A DNA stretch of 64,000 nucleotides, taken from the UHGV virus genome UHGV-1384413. The stretch is one strand, 5' to 3'. Of the stretch, positions 6,529-17,672 are shown piece by piece. Each line of letters begins with the position of its first letter. Position 1 is the first letter of the stretch. The position numbers and the translations under genes were made by a program. The notes under the pieces were generated by a model that was given only the letters and a program-made list of their open reading frames with translations, ran no database searches and was not told the DNA's origin. The DNA is from a virus.

Positions 6529-7242
6529 TTAAATATATTCTGTTACATCCTTGAAGCTTGAAGGCTTCATAATCTTACCTTTACTGTCGAGGAATATGAT
6601 AACTTTATTTCCGTTGTAGAATTCTTCTTTAGCAACAAAACCTTCATAGCGACCATCAAAGCGTCGCTCAAGATCTTTAATCTCCAACTCGATAAGTTGT
6701 TCAGCAGGCATATCTGCACTGGCACCGTGTGAATACCGCAGATGGTTGACGCGTGCAAACTTGCTGTCATTAGATTTTAGAACCTTCCGCATCATCCCGC
6801 ACACATCACCGCGAAGCTGGAACAGCAAAGCTGTTGACAACTCTGCTAAGCGGTAAGCAGACGCTCTTTGCTTAGAGGTATTTTTCGCAGCGATCAGTGT
6901 ATCATAAAATTCACCGATCTTAAACTTAAGACCTCGCGGATTATCAAACAGGTTTGACCACTTTTCATGGTTATCGTTAACAAGATAAGCGGCATAACTT
7001 GTGACAACGTGAAGATCGCAGGCCTCTTTTAGGAGATGATCCCCACCATCACCTTTCTCCAACTCTTCCAAAACTTCATTGAACTCTTCCTCAATGAAAC
7101 TCAGCTGAAGTTCGAATGGTGTGTATGATTTTTTCACTTTAGCTGCTACACGGTTCCAATTTTCCACCCAGTTGGCAGACCAAAGGTAGTTTTCAGGCTG
7201 AGACAGTTTTTCCAAGTTGTCAATCAGTTTAGTATTCAGCAT
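6529..7242 (-). CDS. MazG-like nucleotide pyrophosphohydrolase domain protein
   Basis: 237 aa; EEEFNEVLEELEKGDGGDHLLKEACDL matches the MazG/HisE EExxE..D metal-binding helix pattern. Confidence 0.5.
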   Translation of the reverse strand: MLNTKLIDNLEKLSQPENYLWSANWVENWNRVAAKVKKSYTPFELQLSFIEEEFNEVLEELEKGDGGDHLLKEACDLHVVTSYAAYLVNDNHEKWSNLFDNPRGLKFKIGEFYDTLIAAKNTSKQRASAYRLAELSTALLFQLRGDVCGMMRKVLKSNDSKFARVNHLRYSHGASADMPAEQLIELEIKDLERRFDGRYEGFVAKEEFYNGNKVIIFLDSKGKIMKPSSFKDVTEYI

Positions 7243-7256
7243 TAAAAGGCCTCCGC

Positions 7257-8018
7257 TTACAGTTCCATAAAGTTTTCTACGATGTCAATGAATGTTTTAT
7301 CAGAGAAAGCGTCAACAGCCCCGTTAAACCAAACTGGGATGCCGCGATCCTCATACTGGTAAATGTCACTACGTGAAATGCCATTCTCCCCTAAATGCTG
7401 TGAGTCGTATTTGTTAACGATCAGCAGTTTGGTCCCCTTATTACAGGCAGGGAATAGCTCCCAGTTAAAATTGATAACTGTGTTGGAGCACCCTATAAGG
7501 ATAACCATATCATTGCTCGTCAGAGAAGTCAACAGGTCATACATGTCTGTATACTTTGGAGCTACTTCTCCGAAGAACACGACATTAGGCTTAACCCAAG
7601 TATACTTGCTTGCATCTACCTCAGAGTATCCAATGTCTTTAATGACGTTACTCCCTTCATCATCCTCGTAGACTATTTCTGGCAAATATCCGTGGACATG
7701 TAAAATATCTTCATGTTTTACACCAGCACGCTCCAGCAAATCATCTACATTGGTTGTCAGGTTGATCACGCGACCAGACCAGCGGGAATACCATTCAGCG
7801 ATCCGGAGATGTGCAAGGTTAGGATCAACACTGCCCAGAGCTACACGCCGTGCATTGTAAAAGTCATGAACCTTATAGTAGTTCTTGGCAAAGGTGTGGA
7901 TGTTACACACCTCATCGATGCTGAAATTCTCCCACATTGCAGTGCCACCAGATCGGAAAGTTGGGATACCAGATTCAGCGCTCAAACCAGCACCGGAGAT
8001 AATGATCAGTCGTCGCAT
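7257..8018 (-). CDS. Sir2-family (sirtuin-like) NAD-binding protein
   Basis: 253 aa; GAGLSAESGIPTFR, TTNVDDL, VHGY, KPNVVFFGE, IGCSNTV and LLIVNK match sirtuin motifs in order; no CxxC zinc-ribbon insert. Confidence 0.6.
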   Translation of the reverse strand: MRRLIIISGAGLSAESGIPTFRSGGTAMWENFSIDEVCNIHTFAKNYYKVHDFYNARRVALGSVDPNLAHLRIAEWYSRWSGRVINLTTNVDDLLERAGVKHEDILHVHGYLPEIVYEDDEGSNVIKDIGYSEVDASKYTWVKPNVVFFGEVAPKYTDMYDLLTSLTSNDMVILIGCSNTVINFNWELFPACNKGTKLLIVNKYDSQHLGENGISRSDIYQYEDRGIPVWFNGAVDAFSDKTFIDIVENFMEL

Positions 8019-8026
8019 AAGTGTCC

Positions 8027-8377
8027 TCAGTAGATGTTTTGTTTAATCTCTATTCCAAACTTTTTAAACGAGTCAGCAGCAAGCATGAATTTACGAGCAG
8101 CTGATGGGTTAGAAGTATGCACGAAAATCTTCACGTTGTCAACTACAGGAGGCTTACCAAATATAAATTTTTCCTCCAGCATAGATAGGCAATCGTACCC
8201 TTCAAATACCTCTCCAAGGTCGTTGTCCATGTGCCACTCAGAAACGCGCCTGTAGAGCTTTCCCTTATCGTTAATAAAATCCATAAACTCAGAGGAATTC
8301 TTTAGCCAAAGAGCATCTGGGAGCCCATAATTTGACGGATCTCTCAAGTCATCCAGCCACACAATCAACTTCTTCAT
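8027..8377 (-). CDS. hypothetical alpha/beta protein, receiver-domain-like pattern (speculative)
   Basis: 116 aa; MKKLIVWLDDLRD..HTSNP..K pattern; translationally coupled (ATGA overlap) to the RNA ligase gene upstream. Confidence 0.35.
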   Translation of the reverse strand: MKKLIVWLDDLRDPSNYGLPDALWLKNSSEFMDFINDKGKLYRRVSEWHMDNDLGEVFEGYDCLSMLEEKFIFGKPPVVDNVKIFVHTSNPSAARKFMLAADSFKKFGIEIKQNIY

Positions 8378-9288
8378 TGCATATAGTCCTCGTTGTGGAA
8401 ATAGTAGTCAAGTATCTCACGACGTTCTTGCTCCAGGAGGCAGTTCCACACATCTTCTGTGTAATTGCTACGAATGAAGTTTACCATGCCATAAAACTCT
8501 TCGTCAACACGTTTAAAGATATCATCATCCCAAATCTTCCAAGCTTTACCCCTCATTACGGCCTTCCGTGCCAAATAGTATGGAGACTTGATCTTCAGCT
8601 GCAAATCATAAGGGTAGTAAGGCTTACGAATCATATACCCTTCACCTCTTGTTTCTGCAGCTAATTCTTTTGCATAGCTGAACGGAATTTCACGCACAGT
8701 GTGAGGACGTTTTGCACCAAGGTATTTGGCAATCCCATCTAAAGCTGCTTCTGGTAGCATTATTCCAGAATCATTATATCTGCAACCTATCAAATATGCG
8801 CCATGATCTTCCTGAACAATATGCGGATCTGAAGGGTGGCAAATTTCAAACATGAATGTCATGTTTTCATGGCCCATAACCCTCTTGATAAGATCTAAAT
8901 TACCACATTGCTCCTGGATTGTTTCTTTTGCGAGGTTACAATATGGAGAATCAAGAGACCCGGTTGTTGAGAACAATAGTTCACCTTTATGAGATGATAC
9001 CACACCAAGGAATCCGTTCTTTTTCTCTACCGCCGTCACAAGTTTATTGTCAGGCAGGTTGGTGGAATTTTCTCCCAAGTTAAACACTTTTGTGAAGGGC
9101 CATGCCACAACATTTCCTTCATTACCGACAACAATGCCTCGGCACTCCAGCAAACGAGGAGACAAATGCCATAAATTGTTGTAGAATACTTTTCTGGCAT
9201 ATTTATAGATCTTTAACCCAAGATCCGGGTAATATCTGCTGGTTACAAGACCTTTGTCAACTAGGTCGTCTGCATTAAAATACTTCAT
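8374..9288 (-). CDS. ATP-dependent RNA ligase-like nucleotidyltransferase (Rnl2-like)
   Basis: 304 aa; motif I EKKNG (Kx[DN]G), motif IV-like EGYMIRKP and motif V-like LKIKSP, as in T4 Rnl2-type ligases recalled from memory. Confidence 0.6.
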   Translation of the reverse strand: MKYFNADDLVDKGLVTSRYYPDLGLKIYKYARKVFYNNLWHLSPRLLECRGIVVGNEGNVVAWPFTKVFNLGENSTNLPDNKLVTAVEKKNGFLGVVSSHKGELLFSTTGSLDSPYCNLAKETIQEQCGNLDLIKRVMGHENMTFMFEICHPSDPHIVQEDHGAYLIGCRYNDSGIMLPEAALDGIAKYLGAKRPHTVREIPFSYAKELAAETRGEGYMIRKPYYPYDLQLKIKSPYYLARKAVMRGKAWKIWDDDIFKRVDEEFYGMVNFIRSNYTEDVWNCLLEQERREILDYYFHNEDYMQ

Positions 9289-9352
9289 TATACATTCCTC
9301 ATTTGTTATTTTGTCCCTTTATCCTGCCACACAAATAACTTGGTGTCAACAC

Positions 9353-9381
9353 TTGAAATTAACAAAACAGTTAGGTATACT
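9353..9381 (+). promoter_or_regulatory. sigma70-like promoter upstream of kinase gene
   Basis: TTGAAA, 17 bp, TATACT; about 30 bp upstream of the 9410 start. Confidence 0.45.
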
Positions 9382-9409
9382 ATCATTAAAATTAAAACGG
9401 AGAGTTACT

Positions 9410-9820
9410 ATGTCTAAAATGCTATATATCGTGCGTGGTCTACCAGGGTCTGGCAAATCAACACTGGCAAATGCGCTATCTTTAGAAGGTCTGTATCCAC
9501 ATTTTGAGAACGATATGTTCTGGTACGACGATGACGGCAATTACAATTGGGATGCAAGTAAAGTAACACTTGCAGCAAAATGGTGCAAAGATAACGTAGA
9601 AGATATGATGCGTATGGGCTACGACCGTATCGTGGTAAGTAATACGTTTACAAAAGAAAAATATGTGCAAGAATATATTGACATGGCGATCAGTCATGGA
9701 TATAGTTATACCGTGATCGTGGTTGAAAACCGCCATGGTAATAAAAGCATTCATGATGTTCCAGACAGGGTTGTGGATCGTATGGAACGCCAGCTTAAAA
9801 ACTGCATTAAACTTAAATGA
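9410..9820 (+). CDS. polynucleotide kinase (P-loop)
   Basis: 136 aa from ATG 9410 with RBS acggagag; Walker A GLPGSGKST at the N-terminus; the track start 9254 is rejected. Confidence 0.6.
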   Translation: MSKMLYIVRGLPGSGKSTLANALSLEGLYPHFENDMFWYDDDGNYNWDASKVTLAAKWCKDNVEDMMRMGYDRIVVSNTFTKEKYVQEYIDMAISHGYSYTVIVVENRHGNKSIHDVPDRVVDRMERQLKNCIKLK

Positions 9821-9827
9821 GGAATGT

Positions 9828-10382
9828 ATGAAATACTTTGTAACAAGCGACACACACTTTCTCCACCAGCGGGTAATGGAGTTCGACTCATGTCAAAAAC
9901 ACAGATCTCAGTATGATCACAATCTTGACAGTATGAATGCGGGAATCATCACCAAGTGGAACTCTGTTGTGTCACCTGCAGACACTGTGTTTCACTTGGG
10001 GGATATTGCGTGCACTAATGATAAGAATATCAACAAATTGCTTCCAGATGTTCTAAATATGTTGAACGGACATATTATTCTTGTTCGTGGTAACCATGAC
10101 ACAAGGACGACTGTCAGAATTATGAAAGAGTTCGGTCATGAGGTTGTAGATTATTACGAGCTTCGCCACAACAAGAATTTGATCTGTATGAGCCATTACC
10201 AGTTTGCAAAGTGGAACAGAAAGCCTCACGGATCAGTCCAACTGTTCGGTCATGCTCACGGAACCACACAGCAGTTGTTTGGCAGGCAGTTTGATGTCGG
10301 TTGGGATGTGTGGGGGAGACTCTTACCATTAGAAGAGGCATACCGTATTGCAATGAGTCTTGCTATTGACAGCGGGGAGTAA
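9828..10382 (+). CDS. metallophosphoesterase (calcineurin-like), candidate RNA 3'-phosphatase / 2',3'-cyclic phosphodiesterase
   Basis: 184 aa from ATG 9828 with RBS gaggaa; complete MPE signature SDTHF, HLGDI, GNHD, GHAHG. Confidence 0.7.
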   Translation: MKYFVTSDTHFLHQRVMEFDSCQKHRSQYDHNLDSMNAGIITKWNSVVSPADTVFHLGDIACTNDKNINKLLPDVLNMLNGHIILVRGNHDTRTTVRIMKEFGHEVVDYYELRHNKNLICMSHYQFAKWNRKPHGSVQLFGHAHGTTQQLFGRQFDVGWDVWGRLLPLEEAYRIAMSLAIDSGE

Positions 10383-12026: not shown

Positions 12027-12225
12027 GGAGAGCTTAATGAACAATCCGGTAGCAAAGAACTGTAATAAGTTCAACAAGTCTGCAATTCACACCGACAGGA
12101 AAAAGAGCTGGTCACCGGACATTGACGAGGAGCTTGAGAATTACTTTGAAGATCTAGTCACCAATGCAGGTGAGGTTGCGATTAAAGAATACGCAGACAG
12201 GAAGGATAAGGCCGGAATCTGTTGA
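12016..12225 (+). CDS. hypothetical protein
   Basis: 69-aa ORF overlapping the preceding stop. Confidence 0.3.
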   Translation: MNVEESLMNNPVAKNCNKFNKSAIHTDRKKSWSPDIDEELENYFEDLVTNAGEVAIKEYADRKDKAGIC

Positions 12226-12272
12226 CAAAAATAATGTTACCTGATAAGATCTGCAATATGATGTGATACAAT
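12222..12272 (+). promoter_or_regulatory. promoter region (TTGACA-17-TAAGAT, plus downstream TGATACAAT extended -10)
   Basis: TTGACA 12222-12227 and TAAGAT 12245-12250; TGATACAAT 12264-12272 is identical to the motif at 30669. Confidence 0.4.
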
Positions 12273-12301: not shown

Positions 12302-12544
12302 ATGTTTAAGGTTAAGCTCGTTTTCCGTTCCATGAATGAGGATTATTTAGAAGATGAAGGTGAATTTCGTGCACTAGATGATGCAATAGATTTTGCCAAC
12401 GACTTAGCTTGTATGAATACTGGTTATGGTTTATGTTGTTGGGATGGTGGTGTTCAGATTGGTGATAGCAAGATCTTCTACTTCTACCCTGAGCCCGATA
12501 ACAAACAAATTAAGTATGTTTTATTTATTTGTGCTTTACAATAA
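12302..12544 (+). CDS. hypothetical protein
   Basis: 80-aa ORF. Confidence 0.4.
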   Translation: MFKVKLVFRSMNEDYLEDEGEFRALDDAIDFANDLACMNTGYGLCCWDGGVQIGDSKIFYFYPEPDNKQIKYVLFICALQ

Positions 12545-12832
12545 GGTTGTTTTCGTGTATCATGATGAATATCCAATTTAAAGATGAGTTTGATGGCTTT
12601 ATCTCCGGATGCTTTGAAACAGGGTTCGGAGAAGACTGAGTTCCCCTTAGAGGGCTTGATAGTGCACCACACTTAAAATGGTAGGGGCAGCCAGCACATG
12701 ACGATGTGACCCCAGCCAACCTGTAATAAGGTCGAGCCAGAGCGCGGTAATGGGTATCTGGTAACCCACTTGTTGGGTCTTGCTGGTCCAGGACGCTGGG
12801 CAAGTCGCAGGGAATACCACCCTGCGGCGAAC
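12545..12832. other. GC-rich non-coding island (candidate structured RNA)
   Basis: No plus-strand ORF; all three minus frames stay open with Pro/Arg/Ser-rich low-complexity translations (track ORFs 12484-12954); perfect hairpin cgcaggg-aatacca-ccctgcg at 12806-12826. Confidence 0.35.
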
Positions 12833-12861
12833 TTGACAATCAGTATTTGCCGTGATAAAAT
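12833..12861 (+). promoter_or_regulatory. consensus sigma70 promoter with extended -10
   Basis: TTGACA 12833-12838, 17-bp spacer, TGaTAAAAT ending at 12861. Confidence 0.55.
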
Positions 12862-12889: not shown

Positions 12890-13228
12890 ATGGCGGATAC
12901 AACTAAAAAGCGTCGCCGTAGAGGCAGACCTCTGAAAGAGGAGTCCAACGCCATTCAGCTAGAGAAGAACATTCTTGATATGAAGGAATCTTTTATAGCG
13001 ATGGTTCCAGAAGCTCACAAAGTTTTAAGAGAGCTGATGTTGGACCCGAAAACCAAACAAAATATTCGTCAAAGCATTGCAGAGTATGTTCTTGATAAGG
13101 CAGACCGAATGCAGGAAGAATATGATGAGATGTTTGGTGAAGAGGAAGAGGTGGTAGTAGAAGAGGCTGAAAAACCAGCACCTTTTATGCCATTTACCAC
13201 AGAAATACAGCCTGTTGGCAATAGTTAA
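12890..13228 (+). CDS. small DNA-binding-like protein with basic N-terminus and acidic C-terminus (terminase small subunit candidate, speculative)
   Basis: Start moved to ATG 12890 (RBS ggagga, promoter at 12833); MADTTKKRRRRGRPLK AT-hook-like N-terminus; track start 12770 lies in the GC island. Confidence 0.4.
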   Translation: MADTTKKRRRRGRPLKEESNAIQLEKNILDMKESFIAMVPEAHKVLRELMLDPKTKQNIRQSIAEYVLDKADRMQEEYDEMFGEEEEVVVEEAEKPAPFMPFTTEIQPVGNS

Positions 13229-13237
13229 AATATTTTC

Positions 13238-13266
13238 TTGACAAACTTTGCTTAACAGTGTAATAT
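13238..13266 (+). promoter_or_regulatory. sigma70-like promoter for the tRNA cluster
   Basis: TTGACA 13238-13243, 17 bp, TAATAT 13261-13266. Confidence 0.5.
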
Positions 13267-13324
13267 TGTAAACATGGTCTCCCACCTTTTCTGGCGGCTC
13301 AGGTGTAAAAGAAAGCCACCCAGT

Positions 13325-13399
13325 GCCCTGTTAGCTTAGTGGATAAAGCAGCGGCCTTCTAAGCCGTTGACACTGGTTCGAGTCCAGTACGGGGTGCCA
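13325..13399 (+). tRNA. tRNA-Arg (anticodon TCT)
   Basis: Manual cloverleaf: acceptor gccctgt/acggggt, D stem gctt/aagc, anticodon loop cuUCUaa, T loop ttcgagt, CCA encoded. Confidence 0.7.
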
Positions 13400-13403
13400 A
13401 ATT

Positions 13404-13490
13404 GGGGAGTTATCCCGTAGAGGTAGCGGTGTAGACTGTAAATCTATTGTCATTGCGACTCGGGTGGTTCGACTCCACCACTCCCCACCA
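13404..13490 (+). tRNA. tRNA-Tyr (anticodon GTA), long variable arm
   Basis: Acceptor ggggagt/actcccc, anticodon loop cuGUAaa, variable arm tgtcattgcgactcg, T loop ttcgact, CCA encoded; D stem imperfect. Confidence 0.65.
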
Positions 13491-13604
13491 AATTTACATT
13501 TTTAAATGCATAAATTATACAGATAATGACATTGATATTTATCGTCGTTTATACTAGTCACTAACTGCTCGAAAATCAGTGTCATTATCAGTGTAATTTA
13601 TAAA

Positions 13605-13695
13605 GGAGAGTAGGGAGCAATGGTGCTCAAGCGGTCTTGAAAACCGTCCCATTGAGGACGACTTGATGATGGTTCGATTCCATTACTCTCCGCCA
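13605..13695 (+). tRNA. tRNA-Ser (anticodon TGA), long variable arm
   Basis: Acceptor ggagagt/actctcc, anticodon stem gcggt/accgt with loop cuUGAaa, 20-nt variable arm, T loop ttcgatt, CCA encoded. Confidence 0.65.
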
Positions 13696-13793
13696 TATTG
13701 TTAACCTTGTAATTAAGCGAAAGCCGGAAGCAGAACCGGATTATCAAATGTTACAGTCGTCATCGCCGACTAGCAACATGGTTAACATTATTC

Positions 13794-13890
13794 GCTAGGT
13801 AAGCCCTTTGGCAAGGGCGAGGATTTTTAATCCTGAAAATAGACGAGGTAGTCGTTGAATACATAGGTGGTTCGATTCCATCACCTAGCA
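13794..13890 (+). tRNA. atypical tRNA-like gene (best fit anticodon TTT, Lys-like) with ~30-nt variable region
   Basis: Perfect 7-bp acceptor gctaggt/acctagc and canonical T arm ggtgg-ttcgatt-ccatc, but the anticodon arm is 4 bp plus a G.G pair around loop uuUUUaa, followed by a 30-nt stem-loop region; no CCA. Confidence 0.4.
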
Positions 13891-13896
13891 CCTTTT

Positions 13897-13972
13897 GCTG
13901 ATGTAGCACAATTGGCAGTGCAATTGATTTGTAATCAATAGGTTGCAGGTTCAAGTCCTGCCATCAGCACCA
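13897..13972 (+). tRNA. tRNA-Thr (anticodon TGT)
   Basis: Acceptor gctgatg/catcagc, anticodon stem attga/tcaat with loop uuUGUaa, T arm gcagg-ttcaagt-cctgc, CCA encoded. Confidence 0.7.
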
Positions 13973-13973
13973 T

Positions 13974-14048
13974 GGCCCTGTAGCTGGAAGGTTCAAGCAA
14001 GCGACTCATAATCGCCAGACGGTGGTTCAATTCCACCCAGGGCCACCA
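13974..14048 (+). tRNA. tRNA-Met or tRNA-Ile2 (anticodon CAT)
   Basis: Acceptor ggccctg/cagggcc, anticodon loop cuCAUaa, T arm ggtgg-ttcaatt-ccacc, CCA encoded. Confidence 0.65.
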
Positions 14049-14059
14049 AATAATAAATA

Positions 14060-14136
14060 CTCCGCGTAGCTCAGCTTGGTAGAGCGCCTGATTTGGGATC
14101 AGGAGGTCGAGTGTTCGAATCACTCCGTGGAGACCA
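14060..14136 (+). tRNA. tRNA-Pro (anticodon TGG)
   Basis: Acceptor ctccgcg/cgtggag, D arm gctcagcttggtagagc, anticodon stem cctga/tcagg with loop uuUGGga, CCA encoded. Confidence 0.7.
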
Positions 14137-14957: not shown

Positions 14958-15241
14958 GAGTTACTGCACTGGTTGTTTTGTGCTTGTTATTGTGTGGGTG
15001 TGCAACCAGCGTTGAGAGAGAATACAAGATTGACCCTCCGGATGTAGGAAGGTTGATTGTTAAACCTCCCGAGGGTGCTATGAAACCACCTGCTAAAGCT
15101 ATCCCTTTGAAGAAAGGTGCGCCAGATGCGGTGAATTCTGGCATTATGAGGGATAATAACCTGTCTTGTAGTAATGATAGGGCTAAATTGATCATTTTGC
15201 AAGACTATATAAGAACACTGTTTCCAAAGGAGAGAGGTTAA
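14954..15241 (+). CDS. o-spanin-like lipoprotein
   Basis: 95 aa; signal peptide ending in lipobox-like LLCGC, proline-rich mature part; coupled to the i-spanin gene. Confidence 0.5.
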   Translation: MRVTALVVLCLLLCGCATSVEREYKIDPPDVGRLIVKPPEGAMKPPAKAIPLKKGAPDAVNSGIMRDNNLSCSNDRAKLIILQDYIRTLFPKERG

Positions 15242-15666
15242 TGTCTAAGATTTACGGACCGTGTTCTGAAAAGCAGAAGATGATCCTAGAGAACGATGCA
15301 GATATTTTGGTGATCGGAGGTGCAGCTGGGTCTGGCAAGTCGTTCCTCTTGCAGCTAATGCCGCTTAAAATTATTGATGACCCGCACAGCTCTGTGGTTA
15401 TGTTCCGAAGAACAACTCCCCAGTTGGAAGGTGAGGGTGGGCTATGGCCTAAAGCAGTAGCTATTTACAGTGATCTGCCTGAAAACATTAAACCAAAGTT
15501 CAGAGAGAAGGATCATAAGTTTATTTTTCCACGGTTTGATCCGAGCACTGGCAAGTGGGATAGGAGCAAAAAGGGGGCCGTTGTAAAATACTGCCACATG
15601 GAGTATGTCCAAGATAAGCTTAACCATCAAGGCCTTGAGTACACCATGGTTTGCTTCGATGAGGGT
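15241..15666 (+). CDS. terminase large subunit, ATPase N-terminal part (exon 1)
   Basis: Walker A GGAAGSGKS; ORF ends straight after Walker B MVCFDEG with TAA at 15667. Confidence 0.7.
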
Positions 15667-16550
15667 TAATTTGTAGCTCTCGTAAAACCTCCCTAATTGC
15701 GGGGAAATCTTTATTATTGACACCACCAACCTGTCATGGTAACATGATAGAGGCTTCGAAGAGAGATCGAAGGTATGGTAACAGTGTGTTAATTTAGATA
15801 ATCCGCAGCGAAGCATCCGAGAGGATGAACGTTCAACGACTAGTCGAAAGACGTAGAATCAAGCGATTCGAAACGGGAGGGTGAATGTGTAATACTAAAA
15901 AAATGTATGGATTGCCAAAGAGTTCTGCCTCTTGATGATTTCTTTTTATCATCTAAGAGCAAGGATGGATACTCAGGTACATGCAAGGAATGCTATATGT
16001 ACTACAGGAAGAATGGATCTCGTAGAAACAAAAATATGGTTAAGAGAGATGATGCAGCATCTTTTGTTCAAGACTTGCTGAAGAAAGGTGAGCTTTTTGA
16101 ATGTAAATCTTGTCATGAAAGTATGCTTGCTGATAGTTTTTACACAAAGCGTGACTATGGTAAAGTGTATCTGGTTACGAACAGGTGTAAGATGTGTGAA
16201 AAGTTTTATCAGATTGAGAAGAAATTTCACATAACAAAAGATGAATACTATCGTTTACTCTCAGATCAAGATCATAAGTGTGCCATTTGTAGAATATCTC
16301 TTGATGAGTATAGGACGCAAGGGTACAGAGATTTCTTTTGTGTTGATCATGACCATAAAACTGGTGCTGTAAGAGGGTTGCTTTGTGATAAATGCAACAG
16401 AGCTTTAGGGTTCTTCCAAGAGGATGAGGAAACCATTCTTAGAGCAGCAGAGTATTTGCACATTCATAAGATATAGTCTGGTCTGCATGGAGACATGCAG
16501 CTGCCTGAAAATGGCGGGGCAAGACTAGCGACCTTGCCCGAACATAAACG
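15667..16550 (+). mobile_element. probable group I intron (boundaries approximate) carrying an HNH homing endonuclease ORF
   Basis: Interrupts the terminase reading frame right after Walker B; ORF-free flanks 15667-15906 and 16477-16550 contain hairpins such as gggcaag/cttgccc; stop at the 5' junction, candidate omega-G at 16550. Confidence 0.5.
15907..16476 (+). CDS. HNH homing endonuclease
   Basis: 189 aa; several CxxC pairs and canonical FCVDHDHKTGAVRGLLCDKCNRALG HNH core. Confidence 0.75.
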   Translation: MDCQRVLPLDDFFLSSKSKDGYSGTCKECYMYYRKNGSRRNKNMVKRDDAASFVQDLLKKGELFECKSCHESMLADSFYTKRDYGKVYLVTNRCKMCEKFYQIEKKFHITKDEYYRLLSDQDHKCAICRISLDEYRTQGYRDFFCVDHDHKTGAVRGLLCDKCNRALGFFQEDEETILRAAEYLHIHKI

Positions 16551-17672
16551 ACGCAATTCGAATGGGAGCAGATAGACTACCTGATGTCTCGTTTGCGATC
16601 TCAGTCAAAGTATCCATCAAGAATGGTTATCAGCTGTAACCCCGACTCAGAACACATGCTTGCCAAACTGGTTAGGTGGTGGTTGGACGATGAAGGGTAT
16701 CCAGATCCGGAGAAATGTGGTAAGAAAAGATATTTTATCCGACGCGACGGTGAATTTATTTGGGGAGACTCTAAAGAAGAGTTAATAGAGAAATACACCA
16801 CGGTTAACGGACTGGGTGTGGAGATCAAGCCAAGACCGTTGTCATTCTCGTTTATAGGCGCAACAATTTTCGATAATCCTGTCTGCTTGAGAGACAACCC
16901 AGAATACCTTGCTTTCCTTGAAGGTCTGCCAGAGCTTGAAAAAGCCCAGCTTCTTCATGGAAACTGGTTTGCCAAACCTGAGGGTGCAAACTATTTCCAA
17001 AGATCTTTCCTTCGGGATGCCGATAGAGTACCTCTTGGATCAGTATCTTGCAGGGCATGGGATAAGGCAGGAACCGAGAGAACTTCCGGTAATAAATTTC
17101 CTGACTTTACTGCCAGTGTTAAGGTAAGTAAAGATAGCGACGGCTTTTATTACCTGTCCGGGGATTATTGTCCTGAGAACGTGGATGACGGTAGGTATTC
17201 CACAGGTCTGGAAGGAAAGTTCTGTAAAAAGGCTGGGGAACGAGATGTGATCATCAGGAAACAGGCGCAGTTTGATGGAGATGATTGCATAATCGTATTT
17301 TCTGTGGACCCCGGTCAGGCAGGTAAGAGTGAGTTCTTAACCTCGTCCAGATCCTTGCTCGCCGAAGGGTTCAGGGTTGAAGAAGATCCAATGCCTTCCA
17401 ACAAATCTAAGCTGACAAGGTTCTCACCTTTTGCCAATCTTGCCCAACAAGGAATGGTGAGGATTGTAAAATCCAGTTTCCATCCTGACACTCTGGAAGC
17501 ATTTCTGACTGAACTTGAAAAGTTCAACGGGGAAAGATCAACATTTAACAGAAAAGACGACTGGGCCGACTGTGTAGCTTCTGCGATTAATTTCCTGGAG
17601 AAAGAGGAGGTAGCGCTGCCTTGTGTGATTCCATCAATCTCATCACCTTCTATGTTCAAGCGTTTTATCTAA
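16551..17672 (+). CDS. terminase large subunit, nuclease C-terminal part (exon 2; 5' boundary approximate)
   Basis: Frame open from 16548; TQFEWEQIDYLMSRLRS..VISCNPD continues the ATPase C-motif region, then a nuclease-domain-like region FSVDPGQAGKSEF. Confidence 0.6.
   Translation, partial: TQFEWEQIDYLMSRLRSQSKYPSRMVISCNPDSEHMLAKLVRWWLDDEGYPDPEKCGKKRYFIRRDGEFIWGDSKEELIEKYTTVNGLGVEIKPRPLSFSFIGATIFDNPVCLRDNPEYLAFLEGLPELEKAQLLHGNWFAKPEGANYFQRSFLRDADRVPLGSVSCRAWDKAGTERTSGNKFPDFTASVKVSKDSDGFYYLSGDYCPENVDDGRYSTGLEGKFCKKAGERDVIIRKQAQFDGDDCIIVFSVDPGQAGKSEFLTSSRSLLAEGFRVEEDPMPSNKSKLTRFSPFANLAQQGMVRIVKSSFHPDTLEAFLTELEKFNGERSTFNRKDDWADCVASAINFLEKEEVALPCVIPSISSPSMFKRFI

Follow-up and report, generated by a model that had tools for sequence, protein, structure and literature searches.

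A conserved tRNA operon in an rV5-like coliphage: codon supply as its main explanation, and a tRNA-Tyr with a likely anti-nuclease role

The 64,000-nucleotide (nt) stretch of viral DNA analyzed in this work (UHGV virus genome UHGV-1384413; "the window" hereafter) belongs to a Vequintavirus, i.e., an rV5-like coliphage. It contains seven tRNA-type genes, all identified by ARAGORN on the + strand and together spanning positions 13325-14136. Six are ordinary tRNAs, specific for Arg(UCU), Tyr(GUA), Ser(UGA), Thr(UGU), Ile2(CAU) and Pro(UGG); the seventh, which we call element X, is tRNA-shaped and lies between the Ser and Thr genes. We interpret the cluster as the conserved rV5-type tRNA operon, having codon supply as its main role and, in the case of tRNA-Tyr, an added role against tRNA nucleases. 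We assign this interpretation a probability of about 75%. The Rfam tRNA model scores six of the seven genes above the gathering threshold, element X included (35.5 bits; cut-off 29). The gene falling short is tRNA-Ser, which a permissive search matched to the tRNA-Sec model at 40.5 bits, as a class II tRNA. Thus, the description given in the first-pass annotation of this DNA, six canonical tRNAs plus an atypical element in a single orientation, is borne out.

Codon demand and the six decoding tRNAs

Codon usage was compared using crude open reading frame (ORF) calls, 54 in the window and 61 from six E. coli K-12 loci. Codons were grouped by the 40 anticodon species of E. coli following generally known decoding rules and assuming host-type modification of U34. 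Phage-over-host enrichment is highest for AGA (5.0-fold), ACA (4.1-fold) and AGG (4.0-fold), followed by TCT (2.9-fold), CCT (2.3-fold), ACT (2.2-fold) and ATA (1.9-fold), with the tyrosine codons being little enriched (TAC, 1.4-fold; TAT, 1.3-fold). Overall, the AGA/AGG, AUA, ACA/ACU, UCU/UCA and CCU/CCA codons are 2-5 times commoner in the 44%-GC phage than in E. coli. When the 40 species are ranked by demand, the phage tRNAs occupy positions 1 (Arg-UCU), 3 (Ile2), 5 (Thr-UGU), 7 (Ser-UGA), 10 (Tyr) and 25 (Pro-UGG), and a rank-sum permutation test of the phage anticodon set against codon demand gives P = 0.002. Positions 2, 4 and 6 belong to Arg-CCU, Ser-GGA and Pro-GGG; since the codons of these species can also be read by the U34 tRNAs of the phage, five phage tRNAs cover the whole top of the list. 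In the structural genes downstream from the cluster the bias is more marked than in those upstream: per 1000 codons, AGA occurs 18.0 vs 11.5 times, TCT 23.1 vs 17.3, CCT 20.0 vs 14.1 and ACT 21.4 vs 12.6. Codon supply, already proposed in the first-pass annotation, is therefore well supported as the main explanation of the tRNA set. The same annotation had set against its own idea of defence evasion the possibility that the tRNAs simply mirror late-gene codons; this is largely what is found for five of the six, tRNA-Tyr being the exception.

The gene with the CAU anticodon is best assigned as tRNA-Ile2, a decoder of AUA, rather than as tRNA-Met. It is 76% identical to E. coli ileX, compared to 60% for the elongator metT and 58% for the initiator metZ, and has in common with ileX the anticodon loop and, in the anticodon stem, four of the five pairs. 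It contains C4-G69 and C5-G68, both positive determinants for the lysidine synthetase TilS, and lacks initiator features as well as C27-G43, the key determinant for the tRNA-Met acetyltransferase TmcA (PMC2500205). Because the TilS determinants are present and C27-G43 is lacking, this tRNA should read AUA, in agreement with the enrichment of ATA seen above. Of the alternatives offered by the label "Met/Ile" given to it initially, isoleucine stands and methionine falls. The rV5 paper and most records designate the gene "tRNA-Met", which is mistaken.

The operon can be expected to rely on host functions throughout. RNA polymerase with sigma-70 would start at a predicted promoter, PtRNA, and synthesize a single precursor of approximately 0.87 kb, from which RNase P and the host 3′-trimming enzymes would release the six tRNAs. 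As these have the same identity elements as their counterparts in E. coli, host synthetases and modification enzymes should charge and modify them. Inspection by eye identified A20 in tRNA-Arg, G73 and the long arm in tRNA-Ser, C1-G72 and A73 in tRNA-Pro, A73 and the long arm in tRNA-Tyr, and G1-C72 with C2-G71 in tRNA-Thr; all six genes encode their own CCA. The tRNA-Arg is identical to host argU at 57 of 77 positions and the tRNA-Thr to host thrU at 54 of 76; the tRNA-Ser has the anticodon loop and G73 of host serT, and tRNA-Pro resembles host proM in its C1-G72 pair, A73 and loop. The operon would boost five scarce decoders, Arg-UCU, Ile2-CAU (with lysidine), Thr-UGU, Ser-UGA and Pro-UGG, a role suggested by the correlation with codon usage. 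Besides these and tRNA-Tyr, it would yield the non-decoding element X and two structured spacer RNAs.

Some relatives of the phage are naturally altered in this region. Phage V18 and O157 typing phage 4 have undergone recombination between tRNA-Tyr and X, by which Tyr, Ser and X were lost and chimeras remain with a Tyr 5′ part and an X 3′ part joined in the variable or T arm (L031:950-1047 in V18; L030:600-822 in typing phage 4). These isolates are natural knock-outs, devoid of tRNA-Ser, X and a working tRNA-Tyr. In phages VB-EcoM-WM and YP-6, a 342-base-pair (bp) ORF for an HNH endonuclease is found within the anticodon arm of tRNA-Pro, part of which it replaces, destroying the tRNA. The insertion (L002:2361-2760 in VB-EcoM-WM) aligns with positions 14085-14094 of the window and is the same in YP-6; V18 bears a scar at this very place. 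The Arg, Thr and CAU tRNAs are retained in all deletion variants. As these are the three phage tRNAs ranking highest by demand, their retention counts in favor of codon supply.

tRNA-Tyr, tRNA nucleases and competing explanations

The member of the cluster least explained by codon bias is tRNA-Tyr. It is identical to the T6 tRNA-Tyr at 84 of 87 positions (97%) and to that of T2L at 83 of 87, and its 31-nt block comprising the variable and T arms is that of the T5 tRNA-Tyr; the variable arm, identical in the T6 allele as well, is unlike that of host tyrU. Matches to this allele, which is widely exchanged, come from 611 phage records in several families unrelated to one another; Vequintavirus, Tequatrovirus, Karamvirus-like and T5-like phages are represented. 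The T5-family tRNA-Tyr, tested as the T5/SP15 alleles, is not cut by the PtuAB nuclease of Retron-Eco7 and neutralizes it, for which its longer variable loop is needed (PMC11555353, PMC12673091). Similarly, amplification of the T6 tRNA-Tyr rescues infection from Septu EcB88, and deletion of the T6 tRNA region sensitizes this phage (PMC13096335). Most likely, the tRNA-Tyr described here performs the same anti-PtuAB service as the tested alleles: given the sequence identity, it would keep tyrosine decoding going once a PtuAB-type nuclease has destroyed host tRNA-Tyr. The early suggestion that the set might serve defence evasion is thus retained for tRNA-Tyr only, by homology to the alleles tested in T5 and T6; it does not extend to the entire set.

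Escape through mutation of the target site is not supported by the sequences. A model of evasion by anticodon-loop mutation, reportedly put forward by van den Berg et al. in 2023, was considered and rejected, the phage loops being the same as those of the host. All six tRNAs have the 7-nt anticodon loop of their host counterpart, tRNA-Thr differing at nt 32 alone. The latter retains U36AAUC|A41, the sequence cleaved in tRNA-Thr by PARIS AriB (PMC12409363), where the T5 tRNA-Thr has G39 (U39G) and the T4 tRNA-Thr has G40 (C40G). The first-pass annotation had also counted tRNA-Arg among the targets of colicin-type nucleases. This idea found no support: the anticodon loop is identical to that of argU, with nothing that would protect against colicin D, and to our knowledge colicins are not phage defences.

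One could argue that the cluster is chiefly an anti-defence kit, each tRNA replacing a host tRNA destroyed by a nuclease (Tyr for PtuAB and Septu; Thr and Lys for PARIS AriB; others for Eco2, PrrC and VapC-type enzymes) and the match to codon usage being secondary. Host tRNA-Tyr and tRNA-Thr(UGU) are indeed proven nuclease targets (PMC11555353, PMC13096335, PMC12409363), isoacceptors of both are present in the cluster, and phage copies rescue infection in T5, T6 and, apparently, T4. Furthermore, the tRNA-Tyr allele is the tested one, genes of tRNA-repair type are found nearby, and the 97-99% identity of the Tyr and Ile2 tRNAs between phage families that are unrelated suggests that they were exchanged recently. 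We nonetheless consider this explanation unlikely. Apart from nt 32 of tRNA-Thr, the six anticodon loops are those of the host, and the AriB site of tRNA-Thr is intact, unlike in T5 and T4; the set includes neither an ordinary tRNA-Lys nor a tRNA-Asn, needed for rescue from PARIS. The set follows codon demand, and the tRNAs kept in all deletion variants are those in highest demand, not Tyr. Finally, published screens show Vequintavirinae to be restricted by Retron-Eco7 and by the tRNA-cutting Eco2.

The repair-type genes mentioned above lie 3-5 kb upstream from the tRNAs, where three genes adjoin one another, coding for an RNA ligase of the gp63/Rnl1 type, a P-loop kinase that matches polynucleotide kinase, and a calcineurin-like phosphoesterase. 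Sequence searches of the PDB with these three proteins returned nothing useful. Ligase, Pnk-like kinase and phosphoesterase are parts of a T4-style pathway for tRNA healing and sealing and, as context, would fit a lineage exposed to tRNA nucleases. Just beyond the ligase gene is a gene for a Sir2-like protein (NAD-dependent deacetylase family; 7257-8018, - strand), itself adjoined by a gene with a nucleotide-pyrophosphohydrolase match (6529-7242, - strand).

Quite unlikely, in our view, is that the tRNAs mainly offset the loss of host tRNAs resulting late in infection from the phage's own transcription shut-off and from RNA turnover, along the lines of the "degradation of host translational machinery" model that Yang et al. 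are said to have proposed in Cell Systems in 2021. The five decoders with U34 or lysidine match low-abundance E. coli tRNAs (one gene each, two for Ile2), which would be the first to run out, and codon bias is strongest in the late structural genes. However, the sequence offers nothing that separates this model from plain codon supply, no function degrading host tRNAs was identified in the window, and the sharing of tRNA-Tyr across phage families is left unexplained. Lastly, that the cluster is largely selfish or neutral cargo, moved by homing endonucleases and recombination with little benefit to the phage, is very improbable: the HNH gene inside tRNA-Pro, the Tyr/X chimeras, the near identity of Tyr and Ile2 to T-even alleles and the homing endonucleases within the T4, T6 and T5 tRNA regions all speak for such mobility, but at least 80% of the cluster is preserved in 114 matching records, all stems are intact, with compensatory changes, and the anticodon set is non-random relative to codon demand.

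Several points weigh against the interpretation that we favor, codon supply with an added anti-nuclease role for tRNA-Tyr. The E. coli codon table was built from just six K-12 loci with 61 genes, the ORF calls are crude for phage and host alike, and the wobble reading of UCU, CCU and ACU presupposes that the phage tRNAs undergo host-type U34 modification. When CCG is counted, Pro-UGG ranks only 25th of 40. Tyr, Ser, X and Pro are each absent from some viable isolates. As to tRNA-Tyr, the T6 copy is itself cut at C48 by Septu EcB88 (PMC13096335), and the copy in the window retains the GUC48A49 sequence where this cut occurs. In another laboratory, Retron-Eco7 restricts the Vequintavirinae phage HZA56 as well as T5-like phages; carrying tRNA-Tyr may therefore not always be sufficient. 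Lastly, expression, processing, charging and modification of the operon are deduced from its sequence, and its promoter is only predicted for the phage studied.

Element X and the structured spacers

Element X is a selected, L-shaped RNA and not a decoder with a conserved anticodon. It is composed of a 7-bp acceptor stem, a D arm, a 5-bp "anticodon" stem, a 31-nt variable region with a hairpin, and a T arm. Homologues, unannotated so far, are present in Seunavirus and Mydovirus. Across 10 distinct sequences, all 220 cells of the cloverleaf (22 pairs) are paired, against 31-44% in slid controls. Nine of the 22 pairs vary on both sides, among them the tertiary elbow pair G19:C56, replaced by U:A. 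All of the eight distinct X sequences that were folded adopt the same minimum free energy (MFE) structure, even though the sequence of the variable hairpin differs by genus. Besides the pairing, two single-stranded motifs, GAAAAUA and GAAUACAUA, are invariant. With a covariance model of X, X sequences score 106-128 bits, and no ordinary tRNA exceeds 28 bits.

By contrast, the features expected from a decoding tRNA, a 7-nt anticodon loop with U33 and a conserved anticodon, are not found. The "anticodon" loop has 5 nt in Vequintavirus (UUUUA, or UUAUA in Av-05-type phages) and 6 nt in Seunavirus and Mydovirus (CAUCCA or CAGCCA). The pair that closes this loop goes from U-A to C-G, and neither the discriminator (A or U) nor the 3′ CC(A) is constant among orthologues. 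Since anticodon, loop length and discriminator are not conserved, we regard X as non-decoding. The same variation leaves unsupported a conserved role of X as an ordinary tRNA-Lys (as in the BASEL records) or a suppressor ("tRNA-TERM" in JLBYU08); in GenBank it appears inconsistently as tRNA-Lys, tRNA-OTHER, tRNA-TERM or pseudo-tRNA, or is not annotated at all. The ARAGORN model of X, with a 4-base "atcc" in an 8-nt loop and an ATTTT/AAAAT stem, was discarded as well, for this stem is missing in the sister genera and AGGAT/ATCCT covaries with AGGTC/GACCT. A tRNA-Sec reading would allow a D arm of 6 bp and a 4-nt loop, but the UCA anticodon and the 8-bp acceptor stem are absent, and the covariation at G19:C56 disfavors this reading because it argues for an open D loop. 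Finally, X does not look like an antisense regulator acting through the invariant GAAUACAUA, the complement of which is not enriched in the window (11 occurrences vs 16.6 +/- 3.9 expected).

Scans for the conserved motifs in IMG/VR, metagenomes and 185,579 bacterial genomes detected no X outside Vequintavirinae, the only other hits being three chance matches (L010, L018 and L037). The covariance model failed to match the rnaC and rnaD RNAs of T4 and, when applied to RNA1, RNA2 and RNA3 of T5, reached at most 9.4 bits, on RNA1. Rfam searches with X and the spacers returned no family beyond tRNA, except for junk miRNA-like matches on the hairpin. The nearest analogues of X, in kind rather than by family, are the tRNA-like stable RNAs annotated in T5 and the species 1 RNA of T4.

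In Vequintavirus, X has U33-C40 (UUUUAAUC) in common with E. coli tRNA-Lys(UUU) and carries both the LysRS discriminator A73 and C41, the A41C change being one that reduces cleavage by PARIS AriB. Speculatively, X might be a non-decoding, tRNA-shaped chassis used throughout the subfamily, with a loop retuned in each genus, that acts as a decoy for Lys-specific anticodon nucleases (PrrC, PARIS), or else an unusual Lys decoder, resistant to nucleases, whose anticodon stem has 4 bp. We rate this proposal as a long shot; were it true, X and the adjoining tRNA-Thr(UGU) would cover two of the three PARIS targets.

Both spacers flanking tRNA-Ser are structured. The one on the Tyr side forms an almost perfect hairpin. 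In it, four distinct sequences show three pairs with changes on both sides and 99% of cells paired, against 20-55% in slid controls. A weak promoter-like site (ATGACA-18-TATACT; 13526-13555) falls within this hairpin. On the X side, the closing stem of the spacer reads TGTTAACC/GGTTAACA in the window, TGTTGACC/GGTCAACA in phage nomo and GAGGATCA/TGATCCTT in the divergent relative L013, where it has been replaced wholesale yet remains complementary. Of its 8 pairs, four differ on both sides, while pairing is kept in 98.5% of cells. With four distinct sequences only, support for a conserved structure of the two spacers is modest. No Rfam family was matched by either spacer. The two may represent additional small stable RNAs or sites of processing; that the Tyr-Ser hairpin is a site of the RNase III type is a guess.

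Promoter, flanking genes and relation to other phage tRNA clusters

The coordinates of the operon parts, and of the repair-type genes upstream from it, are collected in Table 1.

Table 1. Features of the tRNA operon and repair-type genes upstream (positions in the window).
Feature	Position	Strand	Description	Evidence
RNA ligase gene	8374-9288	-		Pfam and PHROG matches
Kinase gene	9254-9820	+		Pfam and PHROG matches
Phosphoesterase gene	9723-10382	+		Pfam and PHROG matches
PtRNA	13238..13266	+	Predicted sigma-70 promoter	TTGACA 13238-13243, 17-nt spacer, TAATAT 13261-13266
Leader	13267..13324	+	Leader of presumed precursor transcript; presumably removed by RNase P at the 5′ end of tRNA-Arg
tRNA-Arg(UCU)	13325..13399	+	Reads AGA/AGG	ARAGORN; Rfam 67.8 bits
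tRNA-Tyr(GUA)	13404..13490	+	Class II	ARAGORN; Rfam 29.9 bits
Tyr-Ser spacer hairpin	13510..13601	+	26 bp, 38-nt loop	MFE -30.2 kcal/mol, z = -5.5
tRNA-Ser(UGA)	13605..13695	+	Class II; reads UCA/UCG, and UCU if U34 is modified as in host	ARAGORN
Ser-X spacer RNA	13699..13787	+	~89 nt; 8-bp closing stem, two invariant internal hairpins	z = -2.9
Element X	13794..13892	+	Non-decoding tRNA-like RNA	Rfam tRNA 35.5 bits; ARAGORN "tRNA-???"
tRNA-Thr(UGU)	13897..13972	+	Reads ACA/ACG, and ACU if modified	ARAGORN; Rfam 77.1 bits
tRNA-Ile2(CAU)	13974..14048	+	Presumably lysidine-modified; reads AUA	ARAGORN; ileX likeness
tRNA-Pro(UGG)	14060..14136	+	Reads CCA/CCG, and CCU if modified	ARAGORN; Rfam 66.4 bits

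A consensus scan finds PtRNA to match the sigma-70 consensus at 10 of 12 positions. The -35 hexamer is perfect and the -10 hexamer matches at 4 of 6; hence the site, initially described as a consensus promoter, exists but is near-consensus. The stretch contains 12 promoter-like sites, compared to 7.0 +/- 2.8 in shuffled versions, so that such sites are not statistically rare. What gives PtRNA weight, instead, is that it lies in the 96 nt separating tRNA-Arg from an ORF stop at 13228. Its sequence is unchanged in the divergent relatives L012 and L013, and an identical promoter is listed in Table S4 of the rV5 paper as "PtRNA TTGACAAACTTTGCTTAACAGTG TAatAT" (PMC3606486). From its sequence and context, PtRNA is a plausible promoter. 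No significant fold was found in the leader (z = +0.9).

Upstream from the operon are small ORFs with no assigned function, each preceded by a similar sigma-70-like site. Three of these sites, at 12222-12250, 12535-12563 and 12833-12861 (+ strand), match the consensus at 10-11 of 12 positions, and in two the -35 hexamer is a perfect TTGACA. PtRNA would seem to belong to a series of early-type promoters, and that the upstream genes are themselves early is something we infer. Downstream, the order is an 89-aa ORF, the i-spanin and o-spanin genes, the gene for the terminase large subunit and the portal gene. The cluster had been placed between early genes and the packaging module; this is roughly so, except that the lysis spanins intervene. 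The terminase gene is split by a group I intron (15657-16500, + strand; Rfam 50.9 bits) into exons at ~15241-15669 and 16584-17672, and the intron contains an ORF of endonuclease VII/HNH type (15907-16476).

The 1-kb tRNA region is 97-99% identical to more than 100 Vequintavirus genomes, and the same tRNAs are annotated in B9-1, in BASEL phages and in nomo. Eighteen "Campylobacter phage" records, among MG065646-MG065677 (~128-141 kb), are 95-100% identical to this coliphage locus; their host label is probably wrong. The sister genera have larger tRNA clusters, with Thr-UGU, Arg-UCU, Tyr-GUA and element X in common. Because such a cluster, element X included, is also present there, the statement in the first-pass annotation that the tRNAs were "inserted" is doubtful; by comparison of these sequences, the locus would seem to be old within the subfamily and turning over in content, not recently inserted.

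Cluster, promoter and codon argument were already known from rV5 (Kropinski et al. 2013, PMC3606486); annotations of the locus exist for well over 100 genomes. The rV5 cluster is at the same locus, with the six tRNAs in the same order, the same PtRNA and 97-99% DNA identity. The codon argument of that paper was built on AGA (5.1% to 26%), ACA (14.6% to 35%) and CCA (19% to 29%); UCA/UCU and AUA codons, or defence, are not discussed, the CAU tRNA is called "Met", and element X and the structured spacers are not described (PMC3606486). What is new here is that the CAU tRNA is identified as Ile2, that X is recognized as a conserved tRNA-like RNA that does not decode, that the spacers are structured, and that deletion and insertion variants occur naturally.

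The T-even phages (T4, T2, T6), although of an unrelated family, have in their clusters Arg-UCU, Ile-CAU, Thr-UGU, Ser-UGA and Pro-UGG, together with Tyr-GUA in T2 and T6. Identity is 95-97% for Tyr (T2L and T6), 99% (74 of 75) between the CAU tRNA and the "tRNA-Met(CAU)" of T2L, and 82% for Pro (T4 and T2L). There, too, small stable RNAs (rnaC and rnaD) are embedded among the tRNAs and homing endonuclease genes invade the cluster, but the latter are exemplified by SegB, a GIY-YIG enzyme, as opposed to HNH in the Vequintavirus relatives, and X and the spacers are not homologous to rnaC and rnaD. The cluster in the window lacks Gln, Leu and Gly tRNAs and differs in that all six of its tRNAs encode CCA. 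The T5 tRNA region shares with it the tRNA-Tyr variable and T arms, which are identical, and has promoters ahead of sub-clusters, as well as tRNA-like stable RNAs (RNA1, RNA2 and RNA3) and HNH endonuclease genes annotated among the tRNAs. It differs in comprising 23-24 tRNAs, covering nearly all amino acids, and in having Lys and Thr tRNAs substituted at the AriB site, which the tRNA-Thr described here is not; X is not detectably homologous to RNA1-3.

As a finding in itself the cluster adds little, but the corrections to its annotation (Ile2 labeled as Met, and the various labels of X) are of practical value. Element X joins the "stable RNAs of unknown function" of T4 and T5, unexplained for some 50 years; being small, strongly covarying and confined to one subfamily, it is a workable object for learning what tRNA-like RNAs do. 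The rV5-like phages, common candidates for therapy and biocontrol, carry the tRNA-Tyr allele by which T5 and T6 overcome Retron-Eco7 and Septu, and the isolates devoid of it, V18 and O157 typing phage 4, provide a ready-made test of the effect of this allele on host range.

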